DNA from: a virus
Length of the DNA: 64,000 nt
Strand: one strand, 5' to 3'
IMG/VR virus record: IMGVR_UViG_3300023202_000142
Coordinates: 32,001 to 96,000 of that record
The translations under genes and the position numbers were made by a program. Below the pieces are notes generated by a model, which worked only from the letters and a program-made list of their open reading frames with translations, did not search any database and was not told where the DNA came from. Positions within the stretch are counted from its first letter, which is position 1, and every line of letters begins with the position of its first letter. Positions 4,580 to 58,815 of the stretch are shown here, piece by piece.

Positions 4580-5781
4580 CAGGTACTTCGATCAGCAAAC
4601 TCGTTGAGGTTCAGGCTGTCTGGGAGGTCGTAGAGACCCACCTCGGCCGCCTGGCGCCAGCGATGGTCGATCTCGACTGGGTCTACCATGCCGACCGGCG
4701 CCGGTTCCCGGTGTTCAAAGCCAGTTTCGATGGTTTCGATCTCTCGCTGAACCGTATGGCGGGGGTTGATAGCGATCTCTGGACCGCTCGCGTCGAGGGC
4801 GAATCGATGGGCCCGCGTGGTGTCTCACTGGAGAAAGCCGTCGAGAATCTCGTCAGTGGCTTCCGGAAGTGTCTTGAACTGTCGATCGAACATGCCAGCG
4901 AACTGCTTCACAAGATGGGTGGTGAGTACACCCGCGCGGTCTGTGAGATCTGCCACGAGCCGGCGACATCTGCAGTGCAAGATCACCCCCGATGTGATCG
5001 CCACACCTATCCCAACGCTACTGAGGACGGCCTGCACGCCGTCGACGAGCAAAATACCTCTGACGCACCACCCCCTTACCCCCTCCTGCACGACGCTGAC
5101 GGCCTGATCAAGGTCGGCTACTGGCGTGGACGAACTGATCCCAACCTGCCCGAGCCGGTGTCGACCGAGTACCTGCCGGCCATTAAGGCTGAGATTCTGT
5201 CCTGGCTGCGCAATCACACCGAGGTTCTGCAGCGCTACAAGGGTTTCTCGCGGTGTCGGTTCTGCGACACAGCTAACGGGTCGGTCTGCTACACCGATGG
5301 CACCTATCGCTGGCCTGAAGGTCTGTATCACTACGTCGCCGAACACGACGTCGAACTGCCCGAGTCGTTTGTGTTGCACATGGGTGTCCGGCCGCGGATG
5401 CGCAACTTCCTGGAGGATGGTTTCGTCTTCGCGCCCTACGTCCCCCTGGACTCCGTGGCGCGACGCCAGGACATCCTCGCCCGAACCCTGGGCCCCAAGA
5501 CGGAGCCCGCGGGGCATCTGTTCTACCAGGAATGGAAGGAAGGCGTGATCACCTGGACTGTTCGCAACCTTCTCGACAGGCTCAGGACTGAGCGTGTCGA
5601 GGCCGCGGACCTCGGCCCTGGCGATATCATCGCCACCGACCGCGGGCCGTTTGGGGTCGCCTCCGTCGAGTTCGACGACGGCCTCATCACGGTGTATGAC
5701 GACGATAACATCTCGATCAGCTACCCCATCGCCCACCGCGTGAAGATCGTGAAGCGTTCCTCCACCACCAAGGCCCCGTGA
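4576..5781 (+). CDS. multi-domain hypothetical protein (YKG.S.CRFC...WPEGLYHYVAEH module)
   Basis: about 400 aa; start reassigned to ATG 4576. Confidence 0.7.
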   Translation: MTGTSISKLVEVQAVWEVVETHLGRLAPAMVDLDWVYHADRRRFPVFKASFDGFDLSLNRMAGVDSDLWTARVEGESMGPRGVSLEKAVENLVSGFRKCLELSIEHASELLHKMGGEYTRAVCEICHEPATSAVQDHPRCDRHTYPNATEDGLHAVDEQNTSDAPPPYPLLHDADGLIKVGYWRGRTDPNLPEPVSTEYLPAIKAEILSWLRNHTEVLQRYKGFSRCRFCDTANGSVCYTDGTYRWPEGLYHYVAEHDVELPESFVLHMGVRPRMRNFLEDGFVFAPYVPLDSVARRQDILARTLGPKTEPAGHLFYQEWKEGVITWTVRNLLDRLRTERVEAADLGPGDIIATDRGPFGVASVEFDDGLITVYDDDNISISYPIAHRVKIVKRSSTTKAP

Positions 5782-6008: not shown

Positions 6009-6586
6009 TGGAACCTGACGAAACGAAATGCCCGCAGTGCGGTTCTGGTCTCCGGGCCGAGCGCGCCGAAATCCAGCAGGGCTACGACTACAGGACCGCC
6101 TGCGTCGACCCCTGGCATGAGGCCCCGCCATCGCAGGGGGAGGTCGAAGAGGCTCTCGGGGACGCCCAGGAGGGCTTCTACGCCGACGCGACGTATCGGC
6201 GCTGCCTGGATTGCTCGAAGTGGGTCCGCGGCGGTCCTACGCGATGCCAGGACTGCGTCCACAAGGTCGACTACCAGTTCCCCGAAGAACTGTTCGGCGG
6301 GTCGCGCAACAAGGGCCTGGAGCAGATGGTGCGTGCCGGGTTGCAGTGGTTTGACGAGAACCCCGCACTGAAGGCCCGGGTCGCGCTGAACCTGGAACTG
6401 TCCAGGGACGACCTCAAAGCGCTGCATGATGTCATGCTCAAGGATGCCAGGTGGCCCAGGGGAACCAAGGTCCGCTCAGCAACCCTGCACGTCATCCGCG
6501 GTGTCGCGATCGGGTGGGACGAGTACCTTGACATCGTGAAGGTATTGACACGACCCGACAAGCTCGTGATGGAGCTACTGGGATGA
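6008..6586 (+). CDS. Cys-rich hypothetical protein
   Basis: three CxxC pairs; TAATG coupling. Confidence 0.65.
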   Translation: MEPDETKCPQCGSGLRAERAEIQQGYDYRTACVDPWHEAPPSQGEVEEALGDAQEGFYADATYRRCLDCSKWVRGGPTRCQDCVHKVDYQFPEELFGGSRNKGLEQMVRAGLQWFDENPALKARVALNLELSRDDLKALHDVMLKDARWPRGTKVRSATLHVIRGVAIGWDEYLDIVKVLTRPDKLVMELLG

Positions 6587-12185: not shown

Positions 12186-12406
12186 TGAGGAAGGGTGAGG
12201 TCTACAGGTGGGCCCAGAAGAACGACCTGGATTGGTCCAGCGAGTTCTGTGACGGCCTTCAACGCGCTCTGGCCCACACCGGCGAATTGCGATCTGTACA
12301 GCTAACCATTCTGCGGTCGGCCTTCCAGGTGTTCGGTGGCGACACCTTCAGGGACGCCCAGAAGAAAATGCTGCAGCTCCGCAAGTTACGAGAAGAGCCG
12401 GAGTGA
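12185..12406 (+). CDS. hypothetical protein
   Basis: TAATG coupling. Confidence 0.6.
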   Translation: MRKGEVYRWAQKNDLDWSSEFCDGLQRALAHTGELRSVQLTILRSAFQVFGGDTFRDAQKKMLQLRKLREEPE

Positions 12407-20358: not shown

Positions 20359-20430
20359 TTGACACTGTGCAATACGTGCACTAATTCTGGGTGCGAGGAG
20401 ATCACCCCACTCCCGCCCCCTGGAGGTAGC
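20359..20430 (+). promoter_or_regulatory. promoter TTGACA, operator 20366-20382, ACCCCA-loop hairpin 20393-20416, RBS GGAGGTAGC 20422-20430
   Basis: direct motif reading. Confidence 0.75.
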
Positions 20431-20990: not shown

Positions 20991-21410
20991 ATGTCAGTCA
21001 GTTTCTGGAGTAACGAAGATGAGACGATCGTGACTGATCGATACGAGTGTTGCAACCACAAGGGTTGCTACCACTGCGACGGCGCAGGCTTCGTCGAATT
21101 CACCGGCAAGCGTCACGAATGCAACATGTCGAACGCATCGGCGCGCCTGGTCCTGGAAGGTCTCGGCCTTTCCGATGTTGACCCGCTTTGCGGCGAGGTC
21201 GTTCCGGCCGAGATGCCGGACCTGATTCGCAAGGGAATGCGATTGTCGGCACTGGAGTCCGAAACCAGCAAGTACACCTACGACGCCTTCGAGGATGGCA
21301 ACGTGGTGGACTGCGGAATGGACGCCGACCGCCTCAAGGGTAACGTCGGGCGCGTCCTGGAGCTTCTCCGGGTCGCCGTCGAGAACAATTGGACCGTCCA
21401 CTACGGATAG
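20991..21410 (+). CDS. hypothetical protein
   Basis: start reassigned to ATG 20991 behind GGAGGTAGC. Confidence 0.75.
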   Translation: MSVSFWSNEDETIVTDRYECCNHKGCYHCDGAGFVEFTGKRHECNMSNASARLVLEGLGLSDVDPLCGEVVPAEMPDLIRKGMRLSALESETSKYTYDAFEDGNVVDCGMDADRLKGNVGRVLELLRVAVENNWTVHYG

Positions 21411-35459: not shown

Positions 35460-35515
35460 GCTACCTCCTTTTGTGGGGTCAGTGAGATTGTGTGCACAGA
35501 GTGAACTTCAGTCAA
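35460..35515 (-). promoter_or_regulatory. promoter TTGACT, operator 35491-35507, ACCCCA, RBS GGAGGTAGC
   Basis: direct motif reading on - strand. Confidence 0.75.
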
Positions 35516-37596: not shown

Positions 37597-38595
37597 TTAC
37601 ATGTTCCACTCAGGAGTCATTTCGTCAAGGTCGACCTCTTCATCAGCTTTGACGGCTTCGAGAACCTCGGCCAACGAGAGGTTCTGTCGAAACGTGTGGT
37701 CGATGCGGTCTTCGACCGCGACGTACTCTTCGAGCAACTCCCGGTTGTGCTTCCCGGCGAGCACCAGGGCTTCCTTGGGGGCGAAGATGCAGAACGCGCA
37801 ACTCAGTCGCGGCATCCCCAGGTCGTAGGCCGGGTGGTGGGGAACGCCGGAGGCCCGAATCGTGGCCCAGACCTCGTGCTCCAGCCAGTGCTGAATCGGC
37901 AGCCAGGAGTCGACGTGCTGATTCGAGTTCGACTTCCGGTTCTCGAACTGGGTCTTCTTGGCGCGAGCCGGGGATTCCTCGGCTCGCAGACCCATGCAGT
38001 CCAGAATCCGGCAAGGACGACAGTCAGCCTTCTCGGGGTTCACCTTGCGCCACTCGCGGGCAAGCTGAGTGAAGACCTTGAGGATCGGACCGCGCTTGAA
38101 CTCCGAAGTGCACCAACGAGCGGCCGACGACGGCCAGGCCCCGCGACGCTCCGCGTAGTCCAGGATGTCTCCGTAGGTCTCACCCTTGGAGTAGGTCTTG
38201 CCGTTAACCTTGCAGATTCCACCGATCCTGGACGTCACGATGAAGGGGCACCCGTAAGCTTTGGCCTGTTCTTCGGCCAGCTCGCCGGTTCCCTCCCATT
38301 CGACTTTGCCGAGATCGGCATGAATGACGACGACGCGATCAGCGATGCCAGCATCTGACGCCAACCCGTGGACGTAGTCGAGCATGGCCTGGGAGTCCTT
38401 CCCGCCGGACGACGACACCGCGATGACATCGTACTCGGTGAGGTCGGGAACGACCCCGGCCTCGAACGACTCACCTGCGAAGCAGCGTTTGCAGTACGTG
38501 GAGGGCTTCTCGCCGCCGTACCGAAGCCCGAAGACCTCCCGGCATTCGTCCTTGGTCTCAGCGCGGACACCGCACTTGGGACACTCGTGGTTCAT
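37597..38595 (-). CDS. PAPS-reductase-family (PP-loop) enzyme with N-terminal Zn ribbon
   Basis: SSGGKDSQA, WCTSEFK, GLRAEES..R, LPI..W, HPAY..G..RLSCAFCI. Confidence 0.85.
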   Translation of the reverse strand: MNHECPKCGVRAETKDECREVFGLRYGGEKPSTYCKRCFAGESFEAGVVPDLTEYDVIAVSSSGGKDSQAMLDYVHGLASDAGIADRVVVIHADLGKVEWEGTGELAEEQAKAYGCPFIVTSRIGGICKVNGKTYSKGETYGDILDYAERRGAWPSSAARWCTSEFKRGPILKVFTQLAREWRKVNPEKADCRPCRILDCMGLRAEESPARAKKTQFENRKSNSNQHVDSWLPIQHWLEHEVWATIRASGVPHHPAYDLGMPRLSCAFCIFAPKEALVLAGKHNRELLEEYVAVEDRIDHTFRQNLSLAEVLEAVKADEEVDLDEMTPEWNM

Positions 38596-45828: not shown

Positions 45829-46056
45829 GCCGTGTCCCCTTCGAATGATTACCGGAGGCTCGAAGGGCTCTTCCGGCTCGGAGTCTTCGTCACCGCCTGA
45901 GCGTGTCGACCCCAACAACTCCTCGCGGTTAATTGGAATTTCCTTGGGCGCAACGATGCCGATTCGGACCTGACTTCGACGAATCTCGCGCACTTCGATG
46001 GTGATGTCGTCGCCAACCTGGATTCGTTCGCCGACTTTGCGGGTGAGGGTAAGCAT
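45823..46056 (-). CDS. csrA: CsrA/RsmA-family RNA-binding regulator
   Basis: MLTLTRKVGERIQVGDDITIEV......VRIGIVAPKEIPINREEL; operator 46093-46109 upstream. Confidence 0.92.
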   Translation of the reverse strand: MLTLTRKVGERIQVGDDITIEVREIRRSQVRIGIVAPKEIPINREELLGSTRSGGDEDSEPEEPFEPPVIIRRGHGK

Positions 46057-55662: not shown

Positions 55663-57132
55663 ATGGAACTGATTAAGGAAACCTTCAAGGGCGTTGAGAT
55701 CGAGGTAGAGCCTGATGGTTCGTTTCGCTGTCTCGGCCCTGATGGCTGGAAGATGGAGGGTGTCGAACCCCTTGGTCCGACCGAGGCACTTCGGGAGGCC
55801 AGGGTGTTGGCTTCACGGAGGGCGGACAAGGTGGAAGCCGCTGGGGCTGGGTTCGCATTTGAGTGGAATGACGAGCAGCTCGCAGCGATCGAAGCGATGA
55901 TCGACTGGTGGAATAACGGCTCGGAGTCGTTCTTTGGCCTCTTCGGTTACGCCGGGACCGGTAAAACATCGGTGGTTCAGGAGGTCTGTTCGAGGTTGGG
56001 CAGGTCGCAGTTCAATACTGCGATGGCGGCGCCGACGCACAAGGCGGTTGGTGTGCTTGCGCACACGTCTGCATCTCATGGCAGCTCCAGGTACCACTAT
56101 GCCACGCTCCATTCGCTTCTGAAGTTGCGCCCTCAGAAGGTTGAGGGTCGACAGGTGTTTCGTCGTGACCGACCAGACACAACTGCGCCGATCCAGAACT
56201 ATACGCTGGTCGTGCTTGACGAGTGCTCCATGGTCGACGAGGACCTCTGGAAGTACTTGAATGACGAGGTCCAGGAATCGATCTCGCAGATGTTTCAGGC
56301 GCCGATTCGTGTTGTCGTGATGGGGGATCCGCTGCAACTCCCGCCAGTCAACGACACTGGCGATGAGTCGCCGACCTTTGGTGTCGAGTCTCAGGTCACA
56401 CTGTCGGAGGTGATGCGATACGCCGGTGCGGTTGGTGAGGCGGTTGACGAAATCCGCGACAACATCAACTCGCCGAAGCCGTTGATTCCTGGCGATGCCT
56501 CGGACAGTTATGGTCAAATCGTGAACTACGATGCCCGTAACCGCTGGATGGACGACCTCATTGAGAACGCGCGTGTCGACCATTCTGTGAAAGCGTTGGC
56601 GTGGACGAACCGCTCAGTGAACAAAATCAACCGTGATGTTCGCCAGGCGATCTGGGGTCAGGATGTAGATGCGTTTGTCGCGGGCGAGCGCCTGGTCGCT
56701 GTTGAGGCATATGTTCAGCACAACAACGTCGTGCTGCAGACCGAGGCGGAGATCGAGGTTATCGATGCCCAGCAGGACCAGTTTGGCGGGATGGACTGCT
56801 GGGTGTTGCGGGTCTCAAATCTTCACACCGGCGAGGAGGTCAAGGTCTGGACGCTGGAGTCCAGGCAGCGACATGCCCTGGATCGCCAGCTCAAGCGTCT
56901 GGCGAGGGCCAAGAAGTGGGGTGAGTTCTGGCCGCTCAAAGAGAAGTTCGCGGTGTTGCGCCCGCCCTATGCGACGACGGTTCACAAGTCTCAGGGCTCC
57001 ACGTATCGCCAGGTGTATGTCTTACAGTCTGACATCGGCCGGGCAGGTCGCAGGGACAGCTTTCTGCGTAACCGTCTGATGTACGTGGCCTATTCGCGCA
57101 CGTCGAATGGGCTCATGATTTGTCACGACTGA
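55663..57132 (+). CDS. Dda/RecD2-like SF1 DNA helicase
   Basis: GYAGTGKT, APTHKA, DECSMV, GDPLQLPPV, YATTVHKSQGSTY, YVAYSR. Confidence 0.93.
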   Translation: MELIKETFKGVEIEVEPDGSFRCLGPDGWKMEGVEPLGPTEALREARVLASRRADKVEAAGAGFAFEWNDEQLAAIEAMIDWWNNGSESFFGLFGYAGTGKTSVVQEVCSRLGRSQFNTAMAAPTHKAVGVLAHTSASHGSSRYHYATLHSLLKLRPQKVEGRQVFRRDRPDTTAPIQNYTLVVLDECSMVDEDLWKYLNDEVQESISQMFQAPIRVVVMGDPLQLPPVNDTGDESPTFGVESQVTLSEVMRYAGAVGEAVDEIRDNINSPKPLIPGDASDSYGQIVNYDARNRWMDDLIENARVDHSVKALAWTNRSVNKINRDVRQAIWGQDVDAFVAGERLVAVEAYVQHNNVVLQTEAEIEVIDAQQDQFGGMDCWVLRVSNLHTGEEVKVWTLESRQRHALDRQLKRLARAKKWGEFWPLKEKFAVLRPPYATTVHKSQGSTYRQVYVLQSDIGRAGRRDSFLRNRLMYVAYSRTSNGLMICHD

Positions 57133-57159
57133 AATGGTGAAGGCTGTGCACTTTTTACC

Positions 57160-57188
57160 TTGACGGTTGTGAAGCTCGTGCATAAGGT
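57160..57188 (+). promoter_or_regulatory. promoter TTGACG-N17-TAAGGT with operator 57168-57184; extra half-site 57145-57152
   Basis: direct motif reading. Confidence 0.75.
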
Positions 57189-57194
57189 CTCAGT

Positions 57195-57496
57195 AACGGA
57201 CAGGGACTCAACGCTTCCCATCCTGTCCGGGTTTTGGCCCTTCGGGGCATCGAGTCAGGAGTTGCGTATCTGCGGGAAGAAATGATGAGAGTCTGTAGAG
57301 GGTTAAATCGCTGCATCTTTTCCTTCCGGCCAGCCTTGGCCTTAAAGGGTGCGATGCTACCTCCCCCTTGAAGATCAGACTGGAGTCTCAGGAGCAGCTC
57401 GCCCCTGGACAGGGCCGGACTAACGGGTAGGGGTATCCGCCGTCCCGCGAGCAAACTAGACCCGTCGCCTGCTGGACAGGCGGCGGGTCTTTGTTT
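57195..57496 (+). ncRNA. structured RNA or regulatory leader of about 300 nt ending in an intrinsic terminator
   Basis: several hairpins including C(UUCG)G; 9 GGA motifs; GCTACCTCC at 57356-57364; 29-codon uORF 57282-57371 ending PPP. Confidence 0.55.
57457..57496 (+). terminator. intrinsic terminator
   Basis: AGACCCGTCGCCTG/CAGGCGGCGGGTCT stem plus TTGTTT. Confidence 0.8.
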
Positions 57497-57507
57497 ACAC
57501 ATTTCAC

Positions 57508-58002
57508 ATGAACGTTATCGAGCCAGGTCCGGCGCGAGCGGGTTACATGACCGTGTTTTGCCCGAAGTCGGGCAAACACATTTCGTCGATCCAGTGCGAA
57601 ACGGTCTGTTTCAGCTTTTCGCACTCGTTTGACGCGGCGTGTCGTCATCGTCAGCAGTGTCCGGTGTGGCGTGGCATGGTTGGGATGCGAAACGGTGTGC
57701 TTGAGATGCCCGTGCAGGAGATTACAATGTCAGAAGAACTCACCGAGGCCCAGGAGTCGGCGTTCGATATGCTCGTCGAACTGGGTGGAGACGCGAATTG
57801 GGTGGCCGCGAAGGCGGTCGGCCATCATTCGGCAATCAGGGCGCTGGAGCGTCGGAACGTGATCCAGACCCGTGACATCGACGGAGAGGTTCAGGTCGCC
57901 CTTGCGGGCGTCCTCCTCAACGAGGAGATCGCAGATGCAGCAAGACAAGCAAGAGCAGAAACAGGAGACGCAGGGGCCGACGCCGAAAGTGAAGAGGAGT
58001 AA
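57508..58002 (+). CDS. hypothetical protein
   Basis: Cys-containing N-terminus; wHTH-like C-terminus. Confidence 0.55.
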   Translation: MNVIEPGPARAGYMTVFCPKSGKHISSIQCETVCFSFSHSFDAACRHRQQCPVWRGMVGMRNGVLEMPVQEITMSEELTEAQESAFDMLVELGGDANWVAAKAVGHHSAIRALERRNVIQTRDIDGEVQVALAGVLLNEEIADAARQARAETGDAGADAESEEE

Positions 58003-58478: not shown

Positions 58479-58524
58479 TTGCCGACCGCGGGTGCATCCC
58501 TTACGGTAGTGCACTCTCTTCACG

Positions 58525-58815
58525 TTGTCGGAGGCCGTGATGCTGCGCAAACCTCTTGTTGGGGAGATCGTTACGACGCCGGATGGCGACGGTACGGTTG
58601 TGTCCGTTCAGGAGTACCTCGATCAGTCTGAGGCTGGCTCGCAGGAGTTCGAGGCATTTCTCAGGTCCAGGTTGGGCCGAGATTTTGCGCGGCAATATTT
58701 CACGGCCGAGGTCGAGGTGGATGGCGAGGTAAAGGACTTTGAGTGCTGGGAATTGGACTATGATGCCGAACGAGACCCGGAGGAGGCTCCTTGGCGAGCG
58801 CCTCAAGGGGATTGA
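58525..58815 (+). CDS. hypothetical protein
   Basis: GGAGG SD near GTG/ATG. Confidence 0.55.
   Translation: MSEAVMLRKPLVGEIVTTPDGDGTVVSVQEYLDQSEAGSQEFEAFLRSRLGRDFARQYFTAEVEVDGEVKDFECWELDYDAERDPEEAPWRAPQGD

Follow-up and report, generated by a model that had tools for sequence, protein, structure and literature searches.

Positions 57195-57497 of the stretch analysed here (the window; 64,000 nt, bases 32001-96000 of the 185-kb IMG/VR virus record of an uncultured T4-like phage called G000) make up a + strand RNA gene with its own predicted promoter and terminator. The gene is about 300 nt long, non-coding and single-copy, and it carries in an apical hairpin loop the exact complement of a tag found in the ribosome-binding sites (RBSs) of a class of early genes. 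We put at about 0.6 the probability that its product is a trans-acting antisense RNA that masks these tagged RBSs, through which translation of about 25 early genes would probably be turned down. Two homologues were available for comparison: one on a syntenic 15-kb IMG/VR contig (L003, about 4833-5086), whose helicase is 63% identical to that of the window, and one on a 951-bp Logan contig (L217, about 70-343), reached by an exhaustive profile search with the family of a 164-amino-acid protein encoded immediately downstream.

The anti-tag loop and the tagged early genes

The anti-tag GCUACCUCC (also given as GCTACCTCC; 57356-57364, + strand) is complementary at every base to the RBS tag GGAGGUAGC, which reads GGAGGTAGC in DNA. 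This nonamer occurs nine times in the window against 0.26 expected, a count reached in none of 100 shuffles, and 24 times in the 185-kb genome, where 23 of the 24 copies sit 1-5 nt before a start codon. The only copy in the genome that is not an RBS is the - strand of the RNA gene, which has ATC behind it; both the complementarity to a shared RBS and the missing start codon had been pointed out in an earlier, sequence-only reading of this DNA, and both hold. The 8-mer GGAGGTAG behaves in the same way, with 27 of 28 genome copies lying 1-5 nt before a start codon. Exact copies of the nonamer that form target tags in the window are found at 20422-20430, 20981 and 22115 on the + strand and at 35460, 36241, 38598, 38921 and 43852 on the - strand, and the 8-mer adds sites at 21410 (+) and 37049 (-). 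The open reading frames (ORFs) behind the tags encode 57-437 amino acids; an operator-type promoter lies no more than 130 nt upstream of the tag in 20 cases, and a CCCC motif no more than 45 nt upstream in 24. The usual order of such a cassette is TTGAC, GTGnn-N4-GTGCAC and a hairpin with an ACCCC loop, followed by the tag. In many of the cassette hairpins (for example those upstream of 37049 and 22115, and at genome position 7669) the 5′ arm is GGGAGG-like and the 3′ arm reads CCUCC(C); the latter resembles an anti-Shine-Dalgarno (anti-SD) sequence and could alternatively pair with the downstream tag.

The hairpin that presents the anti-tag spans 57345-57369 (+), with an AAGGG/CCCUU stem (57345-49/57365-69) and a 15-nt apical loop (57350-64). 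Its GGG/CCC closing pairs are found in all three RNAs, where the loops measure 15, 22 and 19 nt and the anti-tag stands at the loop end. An A/U-rich outer stem that can be drawn around the anti-tag in the window and L003 was dropped, as it is not kept in L217. An accessible motif complementary to several SD sequences is what would mark an anti-SD small RNA (sRNA); here the complement of 23 tags occupies an apical loop in three of three RNAs.

Loop and tag differ between lineages in a matched way. The anti-tag of the window, GCUACCUCC, is replaced by GCUAUCUCC in both L003 and L217. On the L003 contig the gene start at 6153 is preceded by GGAGATAGC-AA-ATG and the gene at 12259 by GGAGATAAG, and no GGAGGTAG is present. 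Further tags of this lineage come from the Logan contig L225 (7.2 kb; run SRR29492072, a run number adjacent to that of L217), which was found by a search with a tagged window gene, the PAPS-reductase-domain protein at 37597-38595; the ortholog is 77% identical. The L225 cassettes repeat the layout of the window (TTGAC, GTGnn-N4-GTGCAC, ACCCC-loop hairpin, tag, ATG), with the tags GGAGATAGC (three times), GGAGATAGT, GGAGATGGC and GGAGATCGC, and again without GGAGGTAG. Cassette tags of the related lineage thus read GGAGAT(A)GC, at all six cassette-type sites of L225 and at one site on L003, and no GGAGATAGC precedes a start codon in G000. Tag position 5 is therefore G in the window lineage and A in that of L003, L217 and L225, and the facing loop base is C and U, respectively, giving the pairs GCUACCUCC/GGAGGUAGC and GCUAUCUCC/GGAGAUAGC. 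This is the covariation of seed and target expected of a trans-acting anti-SD sRNA, seen in one event: although the apparent compensatory change is class-wide, we count it once, because the cassettes probably homogenise by recombination. Tagged early genes on L225 also encode a protein with a HicA-like toxin domain, a resolvase, a helix-turn-helix protein and a Cpn10 (GroES) homologue. Two contigs with relatives of the PAPS-reductase gene, L226 and L229, have neither cassettes nor tags.

An antisense sRNA directed at the early RBS class was among the roles that the sequence-only reading had offered, and the conserved apical loop, the sole non-RBS copy of the nonamer and the joint change of loop C to U with tag G to A all argue for it. 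A functionless recombination scar, left by an inverted fragment of an early cassette, would also place the complement of a tag on this strand. The cassettes resemble the mobile promoter-stem-loop modules (PeSL) of T4-type phages (PMC2839356, PMC4122927), and the - strand of the RNA gene shows, besides GGAGGTAGC, an ACCCC-containing hairpin about 60 nt upstream. The - strand lacks a cassette promoter, an operator, a start codon and a conserved ORF, however, and its likeness to the cassettes is confined to the 9-mer, an island of 9 bp that gene conversion would hardly keep in step; what is conserved is the + strand promoter, the covarying helices and the terminator. We consider a scar very unlikely.

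Predicted energies favour the cognate partners. The 9-bp duplexes of loop and tag come to -16.0 kcal/mol in the window and -14.0 kcal/mol in the A-tag lineage, compared with -10.7 and -6.4 kcal/mol for the same tags with the 3′ tail of 16S ribosomal RNA (rRNA), and the window RNA on the A-tag of the other lineage reaches -9.3 kcal/mol. Opening the anti-tag site within the RNA would cost 3.6 kcal/mol, and opening the tags in their leaders 4-8 kcal/mol. In a scan that takes accessibility into account, 19 of 22 tagged start regions had the anti-tag as their best partner site; the totals ranged from -6 to -10 kcal/mol (median -7.5), against a mean of -5.1 ± 1.8 kcal/mol for 243 other SD-bearing start regions used as control. 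Plain duplex folding without accessibility was uninformative, both tagged and control start regions giving about -40 kcal/mol.

The same loop could be imagined as a general competitor for SD sequences, whose C-rich stretch (UACCUCCCCC) would bind any strong SD, host mRNAs included, and so serve host shut-off. ACCUCC is indeed the generic anti-SD core, and the C-rich loops of RsaE/RoxS and of the cuckoo RNAs act on or resemble anti-SD elements (PMC6158497, PMC4615179). Conservation nevertheless extends to GCUA, which matches only the part of the tag private to the phage, and the UCUCC of the related-lineage loop pairs less well with canonical GGAGG while matching its own tag perfectly. We therefore think a general competitor quite improbable and prefer an antisense RNA specific to the tagged class.

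Promoter, terminator and conserved helices

The putative sigma-70-type promoter of the RNA gene (57160-57188, + strand) consists of a -35 element TTGACG (57160-65), a 17-nt spacer and a -10 element TAAGGT (57183-88). Its counterparts are TTGACC-17-TACTCT in L003 and TTGACC-17-TACTGT in L217, so that TTGAC and TAnnnT are kept in all three; a consensus promoter scanner made no call at the RNA promoter, the -10 being weak. We infer a transcription start at A57195/6. An operator-type site, GTGAAGGCTGTGCAC (57137-57151, + strand), lies 8 nt upstream of the -35, and the same 8-nt spacing is kept in L003 (GTGAAGGGAGTGCAC, 4776-4790) and L217 (GTGACGAGCGTGCAC, about 17-31), with the shared form GTG(A/C)N-N4-GTGCAC. 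The genome holds 55 operator sites (GTGnn-N4-GTGCAC), 27 of them in promoter spacers, and the RNA promoter has the only one of the 55 that is placed upstream of a -35. Its spacer contains a degenerate copy, GTGAAGCTCGTGCAT (57169-83), with spacings of N4, N3 and N5 in the three RNAs. The operator-controlled promoter described by the sequence-only reading thus stands as a promoter-like site, but its full operator is upstream of the -35 and only a degenerate copy occupies the spacer. This placement suggests opposite or separate control of the RNA relative to the early genes.

At the other end lies a predicted intrinsic terminator (57458-57497, + strand) with a 14-bp stem (57458-57490), a 5-nt loop and a UUUGUUU tail. 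It was called in the window and in L003, shows compensatory changes across the three copies, and has its U tract on the + strand only. A possible promoter inside the terminator (TGGACA ... TACACA) was rejected, since it has no counterpart in L003. The -35, the TAnnnT -10, the upstream operator at its fixed 8 nt, the 5′ hairpin and the terminator are common to all three copies, and the conserved promoter-like site and terminator would fit a discrete transcript. No conserved ORF was found on either strand of the RNA stretch when window and L003 were compared; a 115-amino-acid ORF on the - strand (57155-57502) spans the anti-tag and was discarded as a gene, being absent from L003. The genome contains no paralogue of the RNA. 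Rfam 15 gave no match in the window besides tRNAs, with E values of 0.8 or higher for the best sub-threshold hits over 57050-57600, and none on L003, L217, L225 or two more distant contigs described below (L218 and L219).

Several local helices appear to be kept at homologous places while the sequences around them differ. The 5′-terminal hairpin H1 (57198-57228, + strand) is GGACAGG/CCUGUCC with a 17-nt loop in the window; in L003 and L217 the corresponding hairpin is GCCGG/CCGGC with a loop of 16 nt, two pairs having changed on both sides. H2 (57237-57248, +) is GCCC-UUCG-GGGC, CCUC-UUCG-GAGG in L003 and the latter stem with the loop CUCAG in L217; its stem covaries, and the UUCG loop is kept in L003 and lost in L217. 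Downstream of the anti-tag hairpin, a 3′ domain (57397-57452, +) has an outer stem GCUCG/CGAGC (57397-401/57448-52), whose first pair is G-C, G.U and A-U across the three RNAs, enclosing the hairpins Ha (57403-14) and Hb (57417-45). Changes on both sides affect three pairs of Ha and up to four of outer Hb; the apex of Hb, GGUA-GGGG-UAUC, is conserved, with its GGGG loop at 57430-33. The invariant single-stranded elements are GCUA(C/U)CUCCCCC, whose first nine bases are in the apical loop, and GGUAGGGGU, whose GGGG is the Hb apex. Altogether eight helices with 39 pairs contain standard pairs only in three of three RNAs, 14 pairs having changed on both sides and three on one; the registers were set by hand and eye and MAFFT fails to reproduce several of them, so these counts lean towards structure. 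When the 3′ partners were moved by 1-3 positions as a sliding control, 38-52% of cells paired. The minimum free energy (MFE) folds of the copies disagree with one another. A further conserved block, UAGAGGG (57296-57302, +), reads UAGAGAG in L003 and UAGAGAA in L217 in alignments read by eye. It is a possible 4-bp partner in cis of the anti-tag (GAGG/CCUC against GAGA/UCUC), with G changed to A where the loop changed from C to U, and this UAGAG(G/A)G block may weakly mask the anti-tag within the RNA, or the match may be coincidental.

The features that the sequence-only reading had named are all present where it placed them: the promoter-like site, the UUCG hairpin, AGAC-UGGA-GUCU at 57377, GCCC-CUGGACA-GGGC at 57401 and the terminator, together with an upstream ORF (uORF) at 57282-57371 and an ACGGGT at 57423. 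That the RNA would keep its structure in relatives is borne out by the covarying helices of L003 and L217. Two of the functions built on these features do not survive the comparison. A leader-peptide attenuator was rejected: the L003 stretch is without any ATG and has no matching ORF, and the ACGGGT antiterminator has no conserved counterpart or pairing there. The RNA could also be a sponge that would bind phage CsrA through GGA motifs in hairpin loops. The phage does encode a CsrA homologue (45910-46056, - strand; Pfam CsrA, E = 1.6e-20), and the window RNA has nine GGA, some of them in loops. The count itself was correct, but the motif, described as modestly above chance, is not enriched, either in the window (9 against 7.7 ± 2.1 expected, p = 0.35) or in L003 (5 against 5.3); the conserved blocks lack GGA, and the GGA-loop hairpins, the terminator loop included, are lost in L003 and L217. 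Such a sponge is hardly credible. Many of the tags are preceded by ACA or CA, which yields ACAGGAGG, and these are candidate CsrA sites.

Neighbouring genes and a possible role in cis

The record is rated 90% complete, has a G+C content of 59% and encodes a major capsid protein of T4 type (Gp23 family, E = 8e-65); 16 tRNA genes lie in the window. The RNA gene lies within the 375 nt that separate a Dda/RecD-like helicase gene (55663-57132) from an ORF of 164 amino acids (57508-58002, + strand), the first in a stretch that includes initiator-like, IstB/DnaC-like and DnaB-like genes ('initiator-like' is the label of the sequence-only reading, and a family search with that gene product gave no match). 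This setting between replication genes, together with the promoter of its own, would fit a structured RNA that serves the replication module in some other way, such as an origin or primer transcript, in which the anti-tag is chance or a relic. The RNA ends in a strong terminator, however, nothing direct points to an origin at the locus, and the RNAs, although they show little other likeness, share the anti-tag 12-mer except for the single matched change. We see only a slim chance for such a role.

Gating of the initiator-DnaC-DnaB operon by the RNA locus, another proposal of the sequence-only reading, does not hold, because these genes are preceded by their own promoter-like site at about 58480-58520. 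A promoter-like site with GTGCAC just past its -10 precedes a 91-amino-acid ORF (58540-58815) in this region (window 58480-58815; L003 6080-6380). The RBS of that ORF is GGAGGCCGTG in the window and its ortholog in L003 carries the tag GGAGATAGC; membership of the tagged class therefore differs by lineage.

The 164-amino-acid ORF deserves separate consideration. Its ATG stands 17 nt past the terminator stem with no SD, a spacing kept in L003, and there is no space for a promoter between terminator and ORF, so that it could be transcribed only by read-through; the two ORFs right behind the terminator are the only ones with this need. In the ORF, a Cys-rich N domain (residues 3-61) is fused to a C domain (residues 74-156); on other contigs from metagenomes the two are encoded by separate small genes. 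A GGAG SD precedes an in-frame ATG at 57727 (M74), whereas the first ATG lacks one. The secondary-structure pattern of the C half resembles a winged helix; an AlphaFold model (pLDDT, the predicted local distance difference test, 47) was unusable and was not used.

These observations raise the alternative that the 300 nt are a cis-acting leader, namely the 5′ untranslated region and regulated terminator of the two small downstream ORFs, with the terminated RNA a by-product and the anti-tag serving the folding of the leader. The position of the ATG at 57508, without SD or room for a promoter, supports this alternative, as does the UAGAG(G/A)G block, which could pair with the loop in cis. Further support comes from distant contigs, L218 (735-1174) and L219 (2433-2717; also L220 and L221), in which a homologue of the N-domain gene is directly preceded by a promoter-like site, a gap of roughly 285-440 nt that is structured and non-coding, and a terminator. 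The fold of the L218 gap has a z-score of -4.25; none of these gaps has significant sequence similarity to the window RNA, and they may be its remote analogues. On L218, GCTACCTACC faces TTAGGTAGCGG in the RBS region of the next gene, a tentative echo of the anti-tag in a place that a 69-amino-acid ORF overlaps. On the other side, the uORF is absent from L003, no homologously placed pairing competes for the 5′ arm of the terminator and the ACGGGT has no equivalent in L003 (by reading), and the downstream gene has no SD that an anti-SD could mask. A purely cis-acting leader would also leave unexplained why the loop matches, and has changed together with, the tag of about 25 distant genes. We regard it as unlikely and retain the trans-acting antisense RNA as the preferred reading.

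Further searches added few sequences. Among GenBank phages neither blastn with the RNA nor tblastn with the 164-amino-acid protein gave a match, and all tblastn matches of the helicase were at or below 30% identity. Pattern scans of IMG/VR for the RNA blocks, the operator promoter and the cassettes returned only chance matches besides L003; the six matches from a scan of one metagenome were likewise all chance, and word-based protein searches with the flanking genes found L003 only.

Weight of the evidence, proposed action and known systems

A number of points weigh against a trans-acting antisense RNA. The RNA is predicted from sequence. The comparison comprises three RNA copies from only two lineages, so that the covariation of loop and tag amounts to a single evolutionary event; just one exact tag of the A-tag lineage lies on the same contig as the RNA (L003), and the assignment of L225 to this lineage rests on similarity and neighbouring run numbers. 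The UAGAGGG/UAGAGAG block could form 4 bp with the covarying loop position and has changed along with it, and part of the covariation could therefore be intramolecular. Net pairing energies are modest, 22 of the 243 control start regions reaching the median of the class. The registers of the helices were chosen by hand, a fold forced to contain the consensus helices lies 5.5 kcal/mol (window) and 11 kcal/mol (L003) above the MFE, and the global MFE z-scores are weak (-1.4 and -0.5). Unimpressive z-scores of this kind are usual in GC-rich sequence. Finally, the terminator abuts a gene without SD that needs read-through, and a role as a leader in cis could coexist or compete with action in trans.

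If the antisense reading is correct, the RNA would be transcribed from about 57195 to about 57497 on the + strand and end at its own intrinsic terminator. Its apical loop would then pair with the private tag found before 23 genes or, with the 8-mer included, 27, most of which come first behind operator-controlled early promoters; by covering the SD and out-competing the 16S rRNA tail, this pairing would block 30S binding, and translation of the class would fall together. More speculatively, the GGGG apex of GGUAGGGGU may touch the near-invariant (A)CCCC hairpin loop upstream of each tag, a complementarity that is present in both lineages and amounts to only 4-5 bp, with no covariation to test it. 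Because the operator lies upstream of the -35 and the spacer copy is degenerate, the RNA may escape the repressor of the early promoters or be switched on by it; a protein that shuts these promoters may thus spare or activate that of the RNA. Taken together, a single module might couple transcriptional and translational shut-off of the early genes, in which the repressor of about 27 spacer-operator promoters spares or activates the RNA promoter and the RNA reads both ACCCC loop and tag. We offer this coupling tentatively and with considerable doubt.

Sequence likeness is lacking, but by analogy the closest functional kin of the phage RNA would be the sRNAs with C-rich anti-SD loops. RsaE/RoxS of Firmicutes binds the SD regions of several mRNAs through its C-rich loops and blocks initiation (PMC6158497), and the cuckoo / RSs0680 family of Alphaproteobacteria has CCUCCUCCC loops (PMC4615179). 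Like these, the phage RNA, as read from its sequence, is structured and carries a C-rich anti-SD-like motif in a hairpin loop. Unlike them, it is phage-encoded, has no sequence or Rfam relationship to either, and an additional GCUA in its motif completes the match to a private tag; it has a single anti-tag loop rather than repeated ones, is about 300 nt long and possesses a three-hairpin 3′ domain.

The c4 RNA blocks the ribosome-binding region of phage genes via short complementary stretches; it acts on one operon of a temperate phage and is cut from the leader of that operon, whereas here about 25 dispersed genes of a T4-like phage of lytic type would be addressed by an RNA with its own promoter and terminator. 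It is the c4 RNA that is known as an antisense immunity RNA of the phages P1 and P7 (Citron & Schuster 1990, as cited in PMC2864571; RF01695). The RF01695 covariance model had no match at gathering or E-value thresholds. In T4, RegB cleaves GGAG within early SD sequences, while RegA and ribosomes compete for about 30 mRNAs (PMC3014915). That silencing is likewise class-wide, post-transcriptional and directed at the initiation regions of early genes, but its effectors are proteins, and the effector proposed here is an RNA; Pfam models of RegA and RegB had no match in the phage genome, but control genomes were equally silent. The PeSL cassettes of T4-type phages, repeated modules of early promoter and stem-loop before small variable genes (PMC2839356, PMC4122927), resemble the targets and not the RNA, and in the sections of those papers used here they are described as recombination modules, with no matching antisense RNA or private tag. 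In our literature search, no sRNA of a lytic phage turned up that was described as matching a private RBS tag in the phage's own early genes.

Phages must switch off their early genes on time, and T4 does so by the proteins RegA and RegB. The RNA described here appears to read a private barcode in the RBSs of a whole gene class, and its antisense action would explain why about 25 RBSs keep an otherwise pointless UAGC extension. Should transcriptional and translational shut-off be coupled as proposed, it would be an RNA counterpart of RegA/RegB. The two natural orthogonal pairs of RNA and tag (C/G and U/A) provide a ready test system and parts for synthetic translational control, and a loop complementary to a repeated RBS tag provides a search signature for such regulators in the genomes of uncultured phages. 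If the reading is true, large lytic phages would run regulon-scale riboregulation of their own genes.

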